64,000 bases of DNA, from the NCBI GenBank assembly GCA_023247705.1, contig JAHFFY010000001.1:33358-97357 (forward strand). The letters run 5' to 3'. Source of the stretch: Candidatus Omnitrophota bacterium. GTDB lineage: Bacteria > Omnitrophota > Gorgyraeia > Zapsychrales > JAHFFX01. Shown here one piece after another: positions 2,534 to 50,043 of the stretch. A model generated the notes under the pieces. The model worked only from the letters and a program-made list of their open reading frames with translations. It had not been told where the DNA came from and ran no database searches. Numbering within the stretch: position 1 is the first letter of the stretch; each line of letters begins with the position of its first letter. The position numbers and the translations under genes were made by a program.

Positions 2534-3597
2534 TTCGCATGAATCCACATTTCGCATTGCCTCAGAAAGTAAAACCATCCTGTTCGGTTTTTGGAGAGTG
2601 CGGCGGGTGTCTTTATCAGGACATTCCTTACACGGAAGAATTGAGATTAAAAGAAACGAACCTGCAAAATCTTTTTCGCTCTCAGCTCAAGCTGAATGAC
2701 GATTGCTTTGAACAAATTCTTCCTTCGCCGCAAGAATATGCGTATCGTAATCGTCTCGATTTGAAGTTGCTTAGAACCAAACAGGGAGAGATTGTGATGG
2801 GATTTTCTCCAACGGGACGCTATCGTGTGGTTCAAGTCGATTCCTGCCCGATTGCCCGGCAAGAGATCTCGGAGTTTCTGCCGGAATTAAAAAAACAGGC
2901 GATCACGAAGCTGACCGGGAAGTACCGCGTCGCAAATCTGGTGGTGCGTTCCGGAGACGAAAAAAATGTTTCCTGGGGAGGGATCGGCCGGAATTCTTTG
3001 CAATTACAATCGGGACGTTATTTCTGGACCGAGCTTGCAGGGAAAAAAATATTCTACTCATTGGATACATTTTTTCAGGCGAACCTTTCGATTCTTCCGC
3101 TGGTGATGGAAAGGATCAGAAAGCTCAGGATTTGGGACAAGAAGACTGTTTTGTTTGATCTATATGGCGGGGTCGGACTATTTTCCGTTGTTTTAGCCGA
3201 TCAGGTCAAAAAAGTAATTTTGATCGAAGAATCGATTGCCTCTTTGCAAGTCGCCCACTTTAATAAGCATTATCATAACTTGGATCAACTCGAAATTATC
3301 CCGGGGAAGGTTGAAGATCGACTGGAAGCTTTTTTGGAAAAAGAATTTCACAATATTATTTTTATCGATCCTCCGCGCTGCGGAGTAAGTCCTACGGTTC
3401 TGGAAATCTTAAAGAAGTTAAATCATCTGCACTGCTTGCTTTATTTATCCTGTGATCCGCAGTCGCTGGTTCGGGATCTGAAAGGTTTCTTAAAAGAGCG
3501 CTGGCAGATTATAAGAGTATTTCCTTTTGATTTTTTTCCTAAAACAAAGCATGTTGAAACCTTAGTCATTTTAAGTAAAACAAAGGTGGAGGTTTAG
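2530..3597 (+). CDS. 23S rRNA (uracil-C5)-methyltransferase, RlmD/RumA family, lacking the TRAM domain
   Basis: Four-Cys Fe-S cluster (CSVFGECGGCLYQ ... SCP); SAM motifs DLYGGVGLFS and IDPPRCG; C-terminal catalytic Cys region (LYLSCDP). Confidence 0.75.
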   Translation: MIRMNPHFALPQKVKPSCSVFGECGGCLYQDIPYTEELRLKETNLQNLFRSQLKLNDDCFEQILPSPQEYAYRNRLDLKLLRTKQGEIVMGFSPTGRYRVVQVDSCPIARQEISEFLPELKKQAITKLTGKYRVANLVVRSGDEKNVSWGGIGRNSLQLQSGRYFWTELAGKKIFYSLDTFFQANLSILPLVMERIRKLRIWDKKTVLFDLYGGVGLFSVVLADQVKKVILIEESIASLQVAHFNKHYHNLDQLEIIPGKVEDRLEAFLEKEFHNIIFIDPPRCGVSPTVLEILKKLNHLHCLLYLSCDPQSLVRDLKGFLKERWQIIRVFPFDFFPKTKHVETLVILSKTKVEV

Positions 3598-4069: not shown

Positions 4070-5929
4070 ATGAGTTTGTTTGATAAGAATATCAGTCAGG
4101 AAAAACGCGAATCGTTGGAGTTAGCGGAAGCTTCGCGCGAAAGCGAATGGCGATATCCCAGTTTTGCTTTAAAACTTTTTCACGGTGTTCTTGATTGGTC
4201 GTTGATCCATCCTTTTCCCATTCAGTCCGAACAAGACCGCAAAGAAGGCGACGAATACTTAGCGCAATTAAAGAAATTTTTAAAAGAAAATCTGGATCCC
4301 GATGAAGTCGATCGAACAGGAATAATCCCGCCCCAGGTGATCGATGGTCTCGCCAAGCTCAAGGCCTTTGCGATTAAAATTCCGAAAGAATACGGCGGTT
4401 TGGGTTTTAGTCAGACAAATTATTGCCGGGCGATCCATTTGGTTGCGAGTTTTTGCGGATCAACGGCTGTGTTGCTTTCGGCGCATCAAAGCATTGGCGT
4501 TCCGCAGCCTTTAAAACTTTTTGGAACCGAAGAACAAAAGAAAAAATATTTCCCGCGATTTGCCCAAGGGACGATCTCGGCATTCGCTTTGACCGAACCG
4601 GAGGCCGGTTCCGATCCCCGCCGGATGACGACCACTGCGACTCCGATCGAAGGCGGAAAACATTTTCTGCTCAATGGAGATAAATTATGGTGTACCAACG
4701 GATTGATTGCCGGTGTCATTGTGGTGATGGCTGTGACACCGCCCAAAATCATTAAAGGCAAAGAACAAAAGCAAATCACCGCTTTTATTGTTGAAACCAA
4801 TTCTCCGGGCTTTGAAATTGTTCATCGTTGTCAATTTCTGGGATTGCATGGCATCCAAAATGGACTGTTGCGTTTTAAAAATGTCAAAGTCCCTCGAGAG
4901 AATATTATTTTGGGTGAGGGAGAAGGATTGAAGTTGGCTTTAACCACGTTGAATACCGGCCGGTTGACTCTTCCGGCGGCCTCAACCGGAATCGCGAAAT
5001 GGTGCTTGCATGTAGCACGACAATGGTCCGTTAAACGAAAACAATGGGGCGCGGCCATCGGGGAACATGAGAGCATCGGATTGAAGCTCGGTTATATCGC
5101 CAGCCATACGTTTGCGATGGACGCGATGAGCTGGCTGACCTCCGCCATGGCGGATGATAAAAATAAAGATATTCGTCTGGAAGCCGCGATCGCTAAATAT
5201 TTTTGCACGCTGCATGCCTGGAAGATCGTGGATGAAACCATGCAGATCCGGGGAGGGCAGGGCTACGAACAATCGTCTTCACTGCGTTCCCGCGGGGCGG
5301 ATTATTATCCGGTTGAACGCGTTTTAAGAGACACCCGGATTAATCTTATCATTGAAGGGACATCGGAGATCATGCATCTTTTTATCGCTCGAGAAGCGCT
5401 GGATCCTCATTTGAGCCGATTTAAGAAACTCATTGATCCGCATGTACAACTCCCCGCGAGAATAAAAACATTTTTGTCCGTTGGCATGTATTATGTGCAA
5501 TGGTATTTGAAATTGCTTTTGCCTAATCACTTTTCTTCGAATCTCACCAGTTTGCCGGAGATTTTGGTGGAACACATGATCTATGTGCAGAATTCAAGTA
5601 AGCGTTTGGCCAGAACCACTTTTCATCAGATGATCAAATATCAGCAAAAACTCGAAGCGAAGCAAAGTGTCCTGAACCGCGTTGTTGAGATCGGAACGGA
5701 TTTGCTCGCAATGAGCGCAACCTGCTCCTATGCGAATCATCTCGTTAAAAATTCTAAACATACCCAAGGGACGATTGATTTGGCAGATTTATTCTGCCGG
5801 GAAGCAAGAAAACGGATTGAATTGAATTTTAAGGAAAATTGCCAGAATACCGACCGCAAAAATATTGCTGTTGCGCATCGGGTGATGGCCCAAGAAATCG
5901 AATGGCTCGAGAGCGATATTATAAAATAG
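4070..5929 (+). CDS. Acyl-CoA dehydrogenase, long form with a C-terminal extension
   Basis: ACAD N/M/C domain motifs (AFALTEPEAGSDP; GGxGY...; C-terminal helical domain). The ATG at 4070 follows a GAGGAG RBS; the track ORF begins earlier at 4025. Confidence 0.8.
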   Translation: MSLFDKNISQEKRESLELAEASRESEWRYPSFALKLFHGVLDWSLIHPFPIQSEQDRKEGDEYLAQLKKFLKENLDPDEVDRTGIIPPQVIDGLAKLKAFAIKIPKEYGGLGFSQTNYCRAIHLVASFCGSTAVLLSAHQSIGVPQPLKLFGTEEQKKKYFPRFAQGTISAFALTEPEAGSDPRRMTTTATPIEGGKHFLLNGDKLWCTNGLIAGVIVVMAVTPPKIIKGKEQKQITAFIVETNSPGFEIVHRCQFLGLHGIQNGLLRFKNVKVPRENIILGEGEGLKLALTTLNTGRLTLPAASTGIAKWCLHVARQWSVKRKQWGAAIGEHESIGLKLGYIASHTFAMDAMSWLTSAMADDKNKDIRLEAAIAKYFCTLHAWKIVDETMQIRGGQGYEQSSSLRSRGADYYPVERVLRDTRINLIIEGTSEIMHLFIAREALDPHLSRFKKLIDPHVQLPARIKTFLSVGMYYVQWYLKLLLPNHFSSNLTSLPEILVEHMIYVQNSSKRLARTTFHQMIKYQQKLEAKQSVLNRVVEIGTDLLAMSATCSYANHLVKNSKHTQGTIDLADLFCREARKRIELNFKENCQNTDRKNIAVAHRVMAQEIEWLESDIIK

Positions 5930-26929: not shown

Positions 26930-27619
26930 ATGCCGAAAATGCTGTTAGAAAATTTCCAGAAAATCCAAAATAGAATCATCGACTTTAAAAACAATAAAAA
27001 ATATCGTGCAATCTACGAAGAATTTAAAGACTACACGATAATTCCCAAAGAAACTTACATCGATAATTTAATCCTAGCCGATATTTACCGTAAAGTTGAT
27101 GGTGCAATCGTTGAATGTGGCGTTTGGCGAGGCGGAATGATTGCCGGGATTGCAAAATTGTTCTCGGATCAACGTGATTATTACTTGTTTGACAGTTTTG
27201 AAGGATTACCTCAAGCCAGGGACGTCGATGGGGAAGATACCATTCAGTGGCAGAAAGATCAAGACAATACGATGAAAGCAGAGATTGATTTTGCGCAAAA
27301 GGCTATGCGCTTATCCGGGACAAGAAATTATCATTTCATCAAAGGTTGGTTTAAAGACACTCTTCCAAAATTTAAGATGGATACTAAGATCGCCATCCTG
27401 AGATTAGATGGTGATTTATACGATTCAACCATGGACTGCCTCACGTATCTTTATCCTTTCTTGTCTGATGATGGGATCATCATTGTGGATGATTATTATT
27501 TCTGGGAAGGTTGTACAAAAGCAGTGCATGATTATTTATCAAAGCATCAACTGTGTTCCAGACTTAGACAGTTCGGTTGTTCTGTTTGCTATCTGATCAA
27601 AAAAGATAAGAAAATTTAA
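26930..27619 (+). CDS. TylF/MycF-family SAM-dependent O-methyltransferase
   Basis: ECGVWRGG, DSFEGLP and RLDGDLYDST motifs of the macrocin-O-methyltransferase family. Confidence 0.75.
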   Translation: MPKMLLENFQKIQNRIIDFKNNKKYRAIYEEFKDYTIIPKETYIDNLILADIYRKVDGAIVECGVWRGGMIAGIAKLFSDQRDYYLFDSFEGLPQARDVDGEDTIQWQKDQDNTMKAEIDFAQKAMRLSGTRNYHFIKGWFKDTLPKFKMDTKIAILRLDGDLYDSTMDCLTYLYPFLSDDGIIIVDDYYFWEGCTKAVHDYLSKHQLCSRLRQFGCSVCYLIKKDKKI

Positions 27620-27625
27620 TGTGAT

Positions 27626-28564
27626 ATGCCCAAAGTCAGCGTCATTGTTCCAACATTTAACCGTGCCAATCTCCTATCCGAGGCGATCCAGAGCGTATTG
27701 GATCAAACGTTTAAGGATTATGAGATCATTGTGGTTGACGTGGGATCAACGGATAACACACGGGAGATGATCGGACGATTTGGAGATCAAGTAAAATATT
27801 TCTATAAGGATCAATGTCCCGTATCAACTGCAAGAAATTTCGGGATGAAGAATTCGTGTGGGGAATATATTGCTTTTCTTGATGATGACGACTTATGGTA
27901 CAAGAACAAGCTTGCAGTTCAGGTGAAAGAACTGGATCAGAACCAGGAATTGGGTTTTTTATGTGCTGAAGCTGATGTCATGACCATGGATGGAAGAACA
28001 CTGTATACTTTGAGAAAAGGTTGGGGAAACAAGGAAAATTTTGAAAGTTTGTTTAATGAAAACTTTATTCCGATGTTAACGGTCTTGATGCGTCGAACAT
28101 GTTATGAGCAAATCGGCGGATTCGATGAAAATTTTATTAATTCCGAAGATTATGATTACTGGCTGAGATTAGCTCAAGTATATCAATTCAAGTATCTTGA
28201 CACCCCGTTGGCAAAATGGCGCGTGACCCCTAATAGTAAGAGTAAAAATATTGAGCGGATGTTTAAAGCGTATTGGAAAATTTTTACAAAAAAGAAGATT
28301 ATCAAGAATGTCCCATTTCGAAAGATCATTATTCGCCGTTCAAAATTCTGTTTGGAGTATGCTGACCTATATAAACAAAAAGGACAATTTTTGCAATCTG
28401 CCCAAGCGTATTTAAAGGCTGTTCTTGTCTTCCCGCTTATTGGGTTTTACATATGGCCGAAAGAAATACGACGGATACATTTTACGCTTTTTTATCGAAT
28501 TTTTAGGATTTATGGGCTGATGTTGTATAGTTTTCTTATGGCCATCAGGAATCCCAAGAATTGA
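27626..28564 (+). CDS. Family 2 glycosyltransferase (tandem paralogue A)
   Basis: VSVIVPTFN, DxD (DDDD), QxxRW-like region. About 83% aa identity to the next gene. Confidence 0.85.
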   Translation: MPKVSVIVPTFNRANLLSEAIQSVLDQTFKDYEIIVVDVGSTDNTREMIGRFGDQVKYFYKDQCPVSTARNFGMKNSCGEYIAFLDDDDLWYKNKLAVQVKELDQNQELGFLCAEADVMTMDGRTLYTLRKGWGNKENFESLFNENFIPMLTVLMRRTCYEQIGGFDENFINSEDYDYWLRLAQVYQFKYLDTPLAKWRVTPNSKSKNIERMFKAYWKIFTKKKIIKNVPFRKIIIRRSKFCLEYADLYKQKGQFLQSAQAYLKAVLVFPLIGFYIWPKEIRRIHFTLFYRIFRIYGLMLYSFLMAIRNPKN

Positions 28565-28591
28565 AATCCTAAGGGAAAGATTAGAACTTAT

Positions 28592-28720
28592 CCCAAAATT
28601 TCTCATCAGGATTTTCGTGCGGGTGGCCCGGAGGCGGGTTCCCTGCCGCCCGCAGGTGATGAGGACGGCAGGGTGCCGCAGGGACAGAACCCGCAACAAA
28701 TTCACAGAAGCAATTTTGGG
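28592..28720. repeat. GC-rich (~70% GC) nested palindromic element between the tandem GT2 paralogues
   Basis: Outer IR CCCAAAATT (28592-28600) / AATTTTGGG (28712-28720). Inner IR TGCGGGT (28618-28624) / ACCCGCA (28689-28695). Core CCTGCCGCCCGCAGG self-palindrome and CCCTGCCG/CGGCAGGG pair. Confidence 0.6.
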
Positions 28721-28780
28721 ACAAGTTCTAGACAGTTTGATCGCTCTGGTTGTTATTTGGTAGAAAGAATTAAATTTAAC

Positions 28781-29725
28781 GTGAAGATACCCAAAGTCAG
28801 CGTTATTATCCCGACTTATAATCGAGCCAATCTCCTATCCGAGGCGATCCAGAGCGTATTGGATCAAACGTTTAAGGATTATGAGATCATTGTGGTTGAC
28901 GTGGGATCAACTGATAACACGCGGGAGATGATCGGACGATTTGGAGATAAGATAAACTACATTTATCAAAAGCAATGTCCAGTCGCAACGACAAGAAATT
29001 TAGGAATGAAGAATTCATCTGGGGAATATATTGCCTTTCTTGATGATGATGACTTTTGGCACAAGAACAAACTTGAAATCCAGGTGAAAGAACTGGATCA
29101 GAACCAGGAATTGGGTTTTATCTGCTCTGAAGCTGATGTTGTGACCTTGGATGGAAAATTAATGTACACTTTAAAACGAGGGTGGGGAAACAAGGAAAAT
29201 TTTGAAAGCTTGTTTAACGAAAATTTTATTCCGGTGTTAACGGTCTTGATGCGCAGAAAATGCTATGAGCAAATCGGCGGATTTGATGAGAATCTTATTG
29301 CTGCCGAAGATTATGATTACTGGCTGAGATTAGCCCAGGTGTATCAATTCAAGTTTCTTGATGCCCCATTGGCGAAATGGCGCATGACTCCCAATAGTAC
29401 AAGCAAAAATATTCAGCAAATGTTCGAAGGACATTTGCAACTTTCTAGAAAAAAGAAAATTATTGCGAATGTCCCATATTTAAAAGTCATTATTCGACGT
29501 TCAAAGTTTTGTTTGGAATATGCTGAGCAATATAAACAAAAAAAGCAATTTTTGCAATCCGCCCAAGCTTACTTAAAAGCAGTTCTTGTTTTTCCAATGA
29601 TTGGTTTTTATATATGGCCCAAAGAAGTTAGAAAAATGCGTTTCACCTTGTTTCACCGAATTTTTAGAGTTTATGGCCTCATGTTGCAAAGTTTTTTTAT
29701 GGCCGTCAGGAATCCCCGCAAATGA
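28781..29725 (+). CDS. Family 2 glycosyltransferase (tandem paralogue B)
   Basis: Same motifs as paralogue A. Likely GTG start at 28781 (VKIPKVSVIIP aligns to MPKVSVIVP of A). The track ORF's 5' extension from 28673 reads through the GC-rich element and is probably not coding. Confidence 0.8.
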   Translation: MKIPKVSVIIPTYNRANLLSEAIQSVLDQTFKDYEIIVVDVGSTDNTREMIGRFGDKINYIYQKQCPVATTRNLGMKNSSGEYIAFLDDDDFWHKNKLEIQVKELDQNQELGFICSEADVVTLDGKLMYTLKRGWGNKENFESLFNENFIPVLTVLMRRKCYEQIGGFDENLIAAEDYDYWLRLAQVYQFKFLDAPLAKWRMTPNSTSKNIQQMFEGHLQLSRKKKIIANVPYLKVIIRRSKFCLEYAEQYKQKKQFLQSAQAYLKAVLVFPMIGFYIWPKEVRKMRFTLFHRIFRVYGLMLQSFFMAVRNPRK

Positions 29726-31011
29726 AAATTATAAAAAGATTTATACAAAATTTGATCAGAATATTTTTTATGCTATTGACATTGATCCGACAATGTTTGA
29801 GAAATAAGTCCGATATAAAGTTGGGTTTTCTTGTGGAAGAGTTCTTTCATGAAGATCTGAGAGGCTTTGGTGGTTTTGGAATGCTGGTTAAGTACATCAC
29901 GGATCATTTCAATCCCAAAAGAGGAATGTTTGGAGCAGATGTTTTATTAACTTTTCCGGTAGATTGCGATCAGCCACAAAAAAAAAGATATCATCACGCC
30001 AATGTGATTTTAAAACCTAAAGTTAATAAAAATTATGTTGCCAATTATTTGCGATATAGCAATCTGATCTTCCAAACACGCATCAATGCGTTTATCTCTA
30101 TTGATTATTATGGTTCATATGATTATCCATTATCAGTGTTTCCTCACATGCCTTTAATGATTTGGCATCAGGATCCGCGGGATGAACAAGAATGGGTGCA
30201 AATCATAACGGTTTCTTTAGAAGTGAAATTTTTAAGTAAATTTAAAACATTTGATTATAACCGTTTTATGAATAATCAGCGTACCTCAGTTGAAAAAATG
30301 CTTGATGACAGTAAAAGATTGAATCGAAAAATTTATTTTGTTAGTCAAGCAAATCAATTAAACGCAATGGCGGAACGATTATACGGCATTTCCAATACCA
30401 ACCCAACATTTTTGCCGAATCCGATTCAAAGCATTGGGGTTCAGCATCAGCATTTTTCTCAAAAGCCCTCTTTTCTTCTTTTGGGACGGTTAGATCCAAT
30501 CAAACGACCATGGATCTATTTTGAGTTGGCCAAACGGTTTAAGGAATATGATTTCTACGTGGCGGGTTCAACTCATTATCAGGAAGAGATGGATCGGGTT
30601 ATTGCCAACTATCAAAATATCCCTAATCTAAAATTTCTAGGAAGAATTATGAGCGAACAGAAGGATCAAATTTTGAATTCTATATGGGCGGTTATTAATA
30701 CCAGTATTCACGAGGCATTGCCCGTCTCTTTTTTAGAAGCTTTTGCCTATGGCAAACTGGTTATCAGCTGCCGTAATCCGGATAATTTAGTGAATCGGTT
30801 TGGTTTTTATACTGGAGAAATCTTAGGAGAGGGAACAGATCAGGTATCAATGGGAAAGTTTGAAACGGCTGTAAAAAAATTGGTATCAAAAGATTTTGAT
30901 AAAGAAACGAGGGGACTGGCTGCTCGTCAATATGTCCTGGAGACGCATACGTTTGAAAATTACGAGAAGATCGTTCGGGAAGTCCTAACGAATAAAAAAT
31001 CTTATCTCTAG
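29722..31011 (+). CDS. Glycosyltransferase (GT4-like C-terminal domain, divergent N-terminus)
   Basis: C-terminal Rossmann GT-B half with E...E motif (EALPVSFLEAFAYGK); ATGA overlap with the upstream gene. Confidence 0.55.
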   Translation: MKIIKRFIQNLIRIFFMLLTLIRQCLRNKSDIKLGFLVEEFFHEDLRGFGGFGMLVKYITDHFNPKRGMFGADVLLTFPVDCDQPQKKRYHHANVILKPKVNKNYVANYLRYSNLIFQTRINAFISIDYYGSYDYPLSVFPHMPLMIWHQDPRDEQEWVQIITVSLEVKFLSKFKTFDYNRFMNNQRTSVEKMLDDSKRLNRKIYFVSQANQLNAMAERLYGISNTNPTFLPNPIQSIGVQHQHFSQKPSFLLLGRLDPIKRPWIYFELAKRFKEYDFYVAGSTHYQEEMDRVIANYQNIPNLKFLGRIMSEQKDQILNSIWAVINTSIHEALPVSFLEAFAYGKLVISCRNPDNLVNRFGFYTGEILGEGTDQVSMGKFETAVKKLVSKDFDKETRGLAARQYVLETHTFENYEKIVREVLTNKKSYL

Positions 31012-49407: not shown

Positions 49408-50043
49408 ATGATACGTGATAAAAATTTTGGCATCATTGTTTGTCTTCTATTAATTTCCGGAATAATTTCCTGGGTTTTATATTTCAAGGAATATACTCAA
49501 GTGGATACAGTGGATATTACCAAATTTCCGAAATCGATATCGGGCTGGACAGCTGAAGATCTTCCAATCAGCAAGGAAGAGTATGATATTTTAGAGACTC
49601 ACAATGTCGTAGCAAGGCGTTATAAAAATATTCAGAATGAACCGATATATCTCTTAATTGTTTATTCTCAGCATAATCGCAAAATTTCTCATCCTCCAGA
49701 AGTTTGCTATACAGGGGGAGGCGTTACTATTTTAGAAAATGTTAAAGATAAGATCCCTGTTTCTGCAGGAAAGAATATAATCAGTGCGAACCGATTACTT
49801 TTAGAGCTAAGGGGGACCAAGCAGTTTTCGTATTATTGGTTTAAAGTAGGCGATTCGTTTACCGCGAACTATTGGAATCAACAAGCCCTCATTGCCGTAA
49901 AAACATTGTTTGGGCAGCCTCATAGTAGCGCATTAATTCGAATTTCATCCGACATCAGCAAGAATGATGAAAAAGGGGCTATTGATCGAATTAAGTACTT
50001 TACAAATTTGATCCTAAATGATTTAAATCGATATCTGCCGTAA
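49408..50043 (+). CDS. EpsI-family exosortase-associated protein
   Basis: N-terminal TM; size, position (immediately 3' of exosortase) and ISGWTAEDLPISKEEYDIL...VVARRY region match the EpsI family. Confidence 0.7.
   Translation: MIRDKNFGIIVCLLLISGIISWVLYFKEYTQVDTVDITKFPKSISGWTAEDLPISKEEYDILETHNVVARRYKNIQNEPIYLLIVYSQHNRKISHPPEVCYTGGGVTILENVKDKIPVSAGKNIISANRLLLELRGTKQFSYYWFKVGDSFTANYWNQQALIAVKTLFGQPHSSALIRISSDISKNDEKGAIDRIKYFTNLILNDLNRYLP

Follow-up and report, generated by a model that had tools for sequence, protein, structure and literature searches.

A TA-flanked hairpin MITE with IS5-type ends in the junction spacer of a tandem glycosyltransferase duplication in Omnitrophota

A GC-rich palindrome lies between two tandem glycosyltransferase genes in a run of otherwise tightly packed genes of a Candidatus Omnitrophota genome. 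In the 64-kb stretch of DNA analyzed here (the window), two family 2 glycosyltransferase genes on the + strand, the upstream paralogue GT2a (27626–28564; 312 aa) and the downstream paralogue GT2b (28781–29725; 314 aa from a GTG at 28781), are separated by a 216-nt spacer (28565–28780). An initial annotation, made from the letters of the sequence, had described a GC-rich palindromic element in this spacer, likened it to a REP/MITE-like or structured-RNA insertion, and proposed that it acts either in the tandem duplication or in transcript processing or stability. The element is real, with corrected borders. With a probability of roughly 0.85, we read it as a TA-flanked hairpin MITE with IS5-type ends that inserted into the spacer of an older GT2 duplication. 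An insertion of MITE type is borne out by its recurrence at unrelated loci, its TA flanks and its IS5-type terminal repeats.

The complete element, both flanking TA dinucleotides included, occupies positions 28582–28730 on the + strand (the operon sense strand) and forms a 149-nt imperfect palindrome. These borders come from the inverted repeat, from full-length matches at four other loci (L010, L024, L025 and L026) and from nhmmer profile matches; the length of ~130 nt first proposed is too short. The body is 145 bp long (GAAC...GTTC) and ends in 17-bp terminal inverted repeats. From left to right, the element consists of a TA (28582–28583), which is one copy of a 2-bp target-site duplication; the left terminal inverted repeat GAACTTATCCCAAAATT (28584–28600, + strand); an AT-rich left subterminal arm (28601–28617, + strand), delimited by its variable columns; a GC-rich core (28618–28695, + strand); the right subterminal arm (28696–28711, + strand), delimited by the alignment of copies and its variable columns; the right terminal inverted repeat AATTTTGGGACAAGTTC (28712–28728, + strand), placed by the inverted repeat and the alignment of copies; and a second TA (28729–28730), the other copy of the duplication, recognized from the flanks of the copies and from the reconstructed junction described below. 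The outer 19 nt, TAGAACTT(A/G)TCCCAAAATT, are complementary at 18 of 19 positions and remain inverted repeats in six copies; over 33 nt, complementarity is 79%. Both inverted repeats reported at the outset, the outer pair CCCAAAATT/AATTTTGGG and the inner pair TGCGGGT/ACCCGCA, are present within the longer terminal repeat, and the direct repeats noticed in the core are there as well (CCGCAGG occurs twice). The supposed self-palindrome CCTGCCGCCCGCAGG, on the other hand, is really an imperfect 5-bp stem with a 5-nt loop.

In composition, the element is an island. The 78-nt core is 74% GC, and the 80-nt GC maximum of the whole 64 kb (75%) lies at 28615. The GC island claimed initially therefore stands, whereas the host value given with it (~38%) does not agree with the 40.1% GC of the window. 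Folding, which had been proposed as a check, gave structures far more stable than shuffled sequence on both strands: −69.7 kcal/mol for the + strand (z −6.3) and −77.7 kcal/mol for the − strand (z −9.3), with 0 of 200 shuffles as stable in either case. The element has no transposase coding capacity; its open frames encode low-complexity peptides of 49–67 aa. At 149 nt, or 203 nt in a long variant, and with no transposase gene, it lies within the size range of MITEs (<300 bp).

By definition, a MITE carries the terminal repeats of a transposon and no transposase of its own. The terminal 17–19 nt of the element are the same as both ends (3271–3287 and 4186–4202; 17/17 identity) of a 0.9-kb IS5-family insertion sequence found in a Ruminococcus MAG (L022, 3269–4204). 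This insertion sequence encodes orfA (DUF4096) and orfB (DDE_Tnp_1), which overlap as for a frameshift and reach 120 and 127 bits against the NCBIfam model NF033580 (IS5 family), whose cutoff is 110. The insertion sequence or its ends are represented by L022 and also by L005, L011, L018 and L020; identical ends recur at contig ends in two Clostridia MAGs, as is expected of a multicopy insertion sequence. Internal to the terminal 17–19 bases, the element and the insertion sequence share nothing recognizable. Among the Omnitrophota sequence examined, no transposase bounded by the element's ends was found; the matching one is in Firmicutes MAGs. Because it combines IS5-family terminal repeats with the lack of a transposase of its own, we classify the element as a MITE, and its ends suggest that it is probably moved in trans by an IS5-type transposase.

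The target site fits the same family. Every complete copy is flanked by TA...TA, mostly in a YTAR context: the left TA follows a pyrimidine in six of seven copies (an A in L025), and all six complete copies have a purine directly past the right TA. Filled and empty sites were compared through a paralogous stretch and through orthologues: the paralogous ‘empty’ sequence in the window, AGACTTAGACAGTT, contains a single TA, and RibF orthologues of a gene that harbors a copy elsewhere are without the insert. A YTAR/TNA target is of IS5 type, with a 2-bp duplication here versus 3 bp (TTA) in the Ruminococcus insertion sequence. The element and that insertion sequence are thus alike in their identical termini and T-A-centred, YTAR-like target, the latter belonging to the NF033580 type with a frameshifted orfA/orfB pair. 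They differ in that the Firmicutes element is 0.9 kb long, has its own transposase and duplicates TTA, whereas the element here is 149 nt long and duplicates TA.

The 64-kb window yielded no second copy to a pattern search, to blastn at word size 7 or to nhmmer; an 18-nt match at 49676 was discarded as chance level. When one genome per species was scanned with the terminal 19-mer, 20 stretches matched, most of them solitary chance matches. Two of the 20 come from the Candidatus Omnitrophota MAG nzgw313, whose copies are 99.3% identical to the element and have unrelated flanks. One, at L010 624–772, is complete and matches at 148 of 149 positions; the other, at L006 1–117, is cut by the contig start and lies ~500 nt downstream of gyrA. 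The L006 locus is the dnaA-dnaN-gyrB-gyrA region, and its contig begins inside the element, which fits a repeat-induced assembly break and hence further copies in nzgw313. The L010 copy stands 25 nt past the stop of a truncated IS982-family transposase ORF (L010 179–598; 107 bits versus a cutoff of 130), a position that suggests insertion beside or into another, decayed mobile element. We considered this IS982-family ORF as the parent of the element and rejected it.

More distant copies came from metagenomes. A six-frame translation of the element, used as protein query, retrieved four ENA metagenome proteins containing its frame +1 peptide, and the contigs of these proteins supplied three full 149-nt copies at 90–92% identity (L024 479–627, L025 333–481 and L026 237–385). 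HMMER over 1.84 billion representative proteins gave only three matches, one of which led to a 203-nt variant on a further ENA metagenome contig (L031 991–1193), where the neighboring genes encode a chorismate-binding enzyme on one side and a class IV aminotransferase on the other. The count is thus seven DNA copies, each in a context of its own and six of them at sites unrelated to the window locus, together with two copies known only as protein. The initial annotation had regarded uniqueness in the genome as an argument against its proposal; further copies in DNA of other Omnitrophota answer this objection, the 64-kb window itself holding one. In JGI metagenomes, a core 21-mer gave a single chance match, located in coding sequence of high GC content. 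Plasmid and phage collections contained no more than a 32-nt AT-rich chance match, in Bacillus plasmids, and viral contigs had no match to an invariant 23-mer from the core. The element family is real but rare in public data.

Several copies lie inside genes, and the element fits reading frames. Its net addition is exactly 147 nt (49 codons), rising to 201 nt in the long variant, whose two indels are extra GC-rich hairpins of 21 and 33 nt. Frame +1 (AGA ACT TAT ...) and its mirror frame −1 are stop-free in all six full copies, and frame +2 has stops in two of the six. The +1 peptide, RTYPKISHQDFRAGGPEAGSLPPAGDEDGRVPQGQNPQQIHRSNFGTSS, is hydrophilic and Gly/Pro-rich (GRAVY −1.25, net charge 0, 61% G/P/S/Q/D/E/N); in frames −1 and +2 the peptide is strongly basic and has cysteines. 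Three copies are inside genes, all of them in frame +1 and near protein termini. For example, the ribF gene of L026 has a strong GAGGAG-ATG start and encodes MKIISASGKV, then the 49 element residues, and then KGIKKIF (KGIKKIFLAIGVFDG); seven Omnitrophota RibF orthologues have the same N-terminus without the 49-aa insert. Similarly, the element in L025 splits the signal peptide of a DUF1318 protein (MRKHY|...|KIIFGLSTLFLAG), and in L024 it lies 10 codons before the stop of a membrane protein. The six-frame protein query found no copy embedded in frame −1 or +2. A further candidate, the RlmN protein P0124, was set aside as ambiguous, being known as protein only and having its RlmN_N domain start directly past the element.

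The history of the window locus can be read from its flanks. GT2a and GT2b are 83.6% identical in nucleotides, in line with the 83% first given, and 80% identical in amino acids; they have diverged by ~16%, with 64 synonymous and 64 nonsynonymous codon differences. An exact look-up of the GT2a protein (P0001) found no database record. Distant homologues of the locus (55–56% aa) have the gene order Wzm, Wzt, TylF-type methyltransferase, one GT2 and GT1, and the single GT2 gene in them implies that the duplication is lineage-specific. Two of these homologous loci, L001 and L002, have the equivalent genes overlapping or no more than 8 nt apart. Removing 147 nt from the window spacer (the body and one TA) leaves a 69-nt junction with a single TA, ...TGAAATCCTAAGGGAAAGATTA|GACAGTTTGATCGC..., with AAAGATTA|GACAGTT at the join. 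The left part of this pre-insertion spacer (28565–28581, + strand) is homologous to the 5′ end of GT1 just past the GT2b stop (aligned to window 29695–29790), and the right part (28731–28780, + strand) is a duplicated methyltransferase 3′ end (~27560–27625, preceding GT2a). In the reconstructed junction, homology to the methyltransferase 3′ end (AGACTTAGACAGTT) and homology to the GT1 5′ end run into each other over a patch of ~18 nt, which reads AGACTTAGACAG in the methyltransferase gene and AGATTTATACAA in GT1 and within which the TA of the element falls. The motif AGAyTTAkACA is common to both parental sites. Judged by its sequence, the join of the GT2 duplication is an ordinary microhomology junction, for which the methyltransferase 3′ copy appears to serve as an empty site with a single TA. 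An earlier idea, that the left arm of the element derives from the GT1 5′ end and its right arm from the methyltransferase 3′ end, was refuted by identical arms at unrelated loci.

Could the element nonetheless have caused or mediated the duplication, through recombination between repeats or a transposition-linked rearrangement? It lies exactly on the junction, with its TA in the ~18-nt patch where methyltransferase and GT1 homologies overlap, and the initial annotation had proposed such a role on the strength of this position. After unequal crossing-over between repeats, however, the outer borders of the duplication should carry copies too, and there is only the one copy: the methyltransferase/GT2a and GT2b/GT1 borders are intact and compact, and the junction without the element is the clean microhomology join just described. 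The ages disagree as well. Since the GT2 copies are 16% diverged and the MITE matches its counterparts in nzgw313 at 99%, the insertion is younger than the duplication. The position is explained by the 69-nt spacer being the only non-coding DNA among tightly packed or overlapping genes and containing YTAR sites; with about four such sites in the spacer, counted by eye, a landing on the junction has a chance of ~1 in 4. A causal role is very unlikely, and we conclude that the element appears to have inserted after the GT2 duplication and to have had no part in causing it. A different concern is that the element could be an assembly artefact, namely a chimera in which a repeat has joined two separate contigs. 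Contigs from ENA ERZ27280021 and Logan SRR14366787 are 99.99–100% identical to the window, and these two independent assemblies break on either side of the element, stopping at 27805 or 27750 and resuming at 28771 or 29304, so that the stretch 27806–28770 with the element is known only from the NCBI contig. These breaks are explained by an 86-nt run that is identical in GT2a and GT2b. One assembly ends exactly at the end of the run (27750), and the ends of two ENA contigs are found 55 nt farther on. The names of the ENA contigs carry the prefix k141, presumably the assembler k-mer size, and 86 + 55 = 141. In addition, the element is intact, with TA on both sides. A chimeric assembly at the element is unlikely because both of its flanks are exactly as expected of a tandem junction, and we hold a chimeric join through a repeat to be highly improbable.

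The remaining alternatives concern what the element is, rather than how it came to be seen at the junction. It might be primarily a cis-acting structured RNA that uncouples the expression of the GT2 paralogues, acting in inter-cistronic processing or stability (e.g., as an RNase III site or a protective hairpin), with mobility secondary. In keeping with this reading, both strands fold very stably, the arms drift around a GC-rich core that hardly changes, and RNase III is known to cleave Correia elements where their terminal repeats pair (PMC10969869). Moreover, eight of nine copies with known context are in sense orientation (one-sided p = 0.02), a count that is biased by four of the nine having been found via ORF calls. 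Other observations weigh against it. No Rfam family matched the window at gathering score, nor the stretch 28400–28900 even at E ≤ 10, so that neither a known RNA family nor the covariance-model search proposed initially lends it support. The invariant core is without covariation, and the two compensatory pairs are in the terminal repeats. The unrelated contexts of the copies, some inside coding sequences, imply no common regulatory target. A promoter and terminator scan of both strands of 28300–29000 found no promoter-like site, no terminator-like site and no U-tract; the hairpin is followed by GACAGTTTGATCGC, which is unlike an intrinsic terminator. A hammerhead-like CUGAUGAG on the minus strand was also considered and dropped, as no ribozyme model matched. 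We judge a primary RNA function unlikely, while an effect of the inserted MITE on GT2a-GT2b transcript processing or stability is possible. The element could also be a REPIN-like REP doublet moved by a RAYT (HUH-type) rather than a DDE-type transposase. REPINs, as Bertels and Rainey reportedly described them in 2011, have a GC-rich palindromic core in a long hairpin with compensatory changes between the arms, and the element shares these features and the tendency of REP/REPIN sequences to form intergenic, GC-rich hairpins. REPINs have neither target duplications nor AT-rich terminal repeats of DDE type, whereas the element has both, its AT-rich termini being identical to IS5-family ends and its TA being duplicated; its copies inside genes and the low copy number observed likewise argue against a REPIN, an origin to which we assign very little probability. 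Finally, the spacer itself might be coding, with GT2a, spacer and GT2b in one frame and the element forming a Gly/Pro-rich linker, reached by read-through of a TGA or by initiation at a GTG at 28673. A single TGA (28562–28564) is followed by 72 stop-free spacer codons in the frame shared by GT2a and GT2b, an SD-like GAGGA stands 7 nt before that GTG (28661–28675, + strand, in frame with GT2b), and the frame is the one whose hydrophilic peptide (GRAVY −1.25) is translated inside ribF and other genes. Yet TGA ends nine of the 47 long ORFs in the window and is an ordinary stop there, and the shared frame is simply what a 3n insertion leaves behind when the 69-nt spacer receiving it is itself in frame. 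The strongest predicted stem encloses the internal SD and GTG, and GT2a starts at a position homologous to 28787. A coding spacer is exceedingly improbable.

The same comparison bears on the annotated start of GT2b. The ORF spans 28673–29725, and the database protein P0002 (source ncbi, 350 aa) starts at the GTG at 28673, inside the element. Because GT2a aligns only from residue 3 of the GT2b that starts at 28781, with the GT2a start homologous to 28787, the first 36 residues of P0002 are probably an element-derived over-extension and its start a mis-annotation. The methyltransferase gene, GT2a, the spacer and GT2b (window 26930–29725) are all in one reading frame.

The MITE reading leaves the pattern of conservation to be accounted for. 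Among five 149-nt copies, five of 78 columns vary in the core versus 22 of 71 in the arms (Fisher p = 1e-4), and pairwise differences between copies number 0–4 in the 78 core positions and 6–17 in the 71 arm positions. The subterminal arms (28601–28617 and 28696–28711) are the most variable part, with variation in 14 of 33 columns. The terminal stem shows compensatory changes, from C-G to G-C at 13/137 and among A.C, A-U and G-C at 9/141, and all tested copies fold with z between −3.5 and −9.3. For the core, a nested or branched fold is predicted, in which a GCGGGT/ACCCGC closing stem surrounds two or three GC hairpins; this fold is a prediction only, because the invariant core gives no covariation. 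Stronger conservation of the core than of the terminal repeats is atypical of a simple MITE and may reflect an additional constraint. A simple MITE likewise leaves unexplained why a 74% GC core is kept in AT-rich hosts; the core could be needed for mobility or could act at the RNA level. It is tempting to speculate that the core is under selection both as a stable RNA or DNA hairpin and as a harmless translatable linker, making the family a ‘translation-proof’ selfish element suited to gene-dense Omnitrophota, possibly with a role at the RNA level or in transposition. The near-invariant core, growth by 3n GC hairpins, the mostly sense orientation and the use of one frame are the basis of this idea, which we regard as doubtful and put forward tentatively.

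Compared with known systems, the element resembles by description the Correia/NEMIS, ERIC and RUP elements, which are 100–200 bp long with terminal inverted repeats, have 5′-TA-3′ ends with a target duplication, lie in operon spacers and have transcripts that fold into one long hairpin. Unlike in these, the core outconserves the terminal repeats and is 74% GC in a 40% GC host, neither a promoter nor an IHF motif was found in the element, and the host phylum is Omnitrophota. Some TA-ended bacterial MITEs, certain ERIC and Correia elements among them, have open frames fused to genes (Delihas 2008, PMC2229807; PMC10969869). The present family is tolerated even inside genes, where its 49 codons add a stop-free, hydrophilic sense peptide, a trait that is already documented elsewhere. 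Rickettsia palindromic elements (RPEs) are a second parallel: in the account of Ogata et al. 2000 relayed in PMC10969869 and PMC2229807, these ~150-bp palindromic elements insert in frame into conserved genes and add a peptide. The likeness is one of behavior only, as seen in the 49-aa in-frame insertions in ribF, the DUF1318 signal peptide and the membrane protein. RPEs belong to another lineage and presumably differ in sequence, whereas a DDE transposase is indicated for the present element by its clear TA duplication and IS5-type ends; there are also only three clear intragenic cases here, all near protein termini.

Taken as a MITE, the element suggests the following course of events at this locus. 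An IS5-family DDE transposase, supplied in trans, would bind both terminal repeats, cut out or copy the element, and insert it at a TA (YTAR target, with the TA duplicated). The insertion would have followed the GT2 duplication and gone into the 69-nt non-coding junction spacer, the only gap among the packed genes. The element would since then be co-transcribed in sense orientation with the polysaccharide operon, and the transcript would form a hairpin of ~70 kcal/mol that ends some 50 nt before GT2b begins. The element probably has no effect there, or mildly alters how the GT2a-GT2b transcript is processed or how stable it is; if it behaves like Correia elements, RNase III could cleave where the terminal repeats pair and so shift the relative stability of the GT2a and GT2b parts of the transcript. 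Most likely, the element at this locus is a passenger.

This reading explains an odd GC island without a new RNA or recombination mechanism, corrects a likely mis-annotation of the GT2b start inside the element, and documents a MITE family in Omnitrophota, for which a full-text literature search found no paper describing MITEs. The copies in ribF and in a signal peptide show that RPE-like colonization of protein-coding genes also occurs outside Rickettsia. Such in-frame copies matter for gene calling in MAGs and for the tolerance of selfish DNA by compact genomes, and the element marks a site of assembly breaks.

Several smaller observations accompany these results. Window 16930–41011 is 99.99–100% identical to contigs of ERZ27280021, and shorter parts are identical at the same level to contigs of SRR14366787; this identity places the source organism in those samples, which also hold the diverged copy L025. 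The 86-nt run shared by GT2a (27665–27750) and GT2b (28826–28911) contrasts with 70–90% identity per 60-nt block elsewhere, which suggests a recent gene-conversion tract or strong constraint. In L031, ~10 bases downstream of the long variant (~1200–1270), a second small palindrome, TTAAATCTCC...GGGGGATTTAA, encloses CCTGCCGGCGAGGCAGG; the latter carries the same CCTGCC...GGCAGG motif as the element core, and GC-rich mini-hairpins of this type may occur on their own. Lastly, P0244 (ENA ERZ27296333) is a 114-aa ORF with one element-derived peptide followed by a second segment, from RTRSCPKII onward, that may be a diverged second element in tandem. Both genes neighboring P0244 are on the opposite strand, making it the sole copy seen in antisense context.
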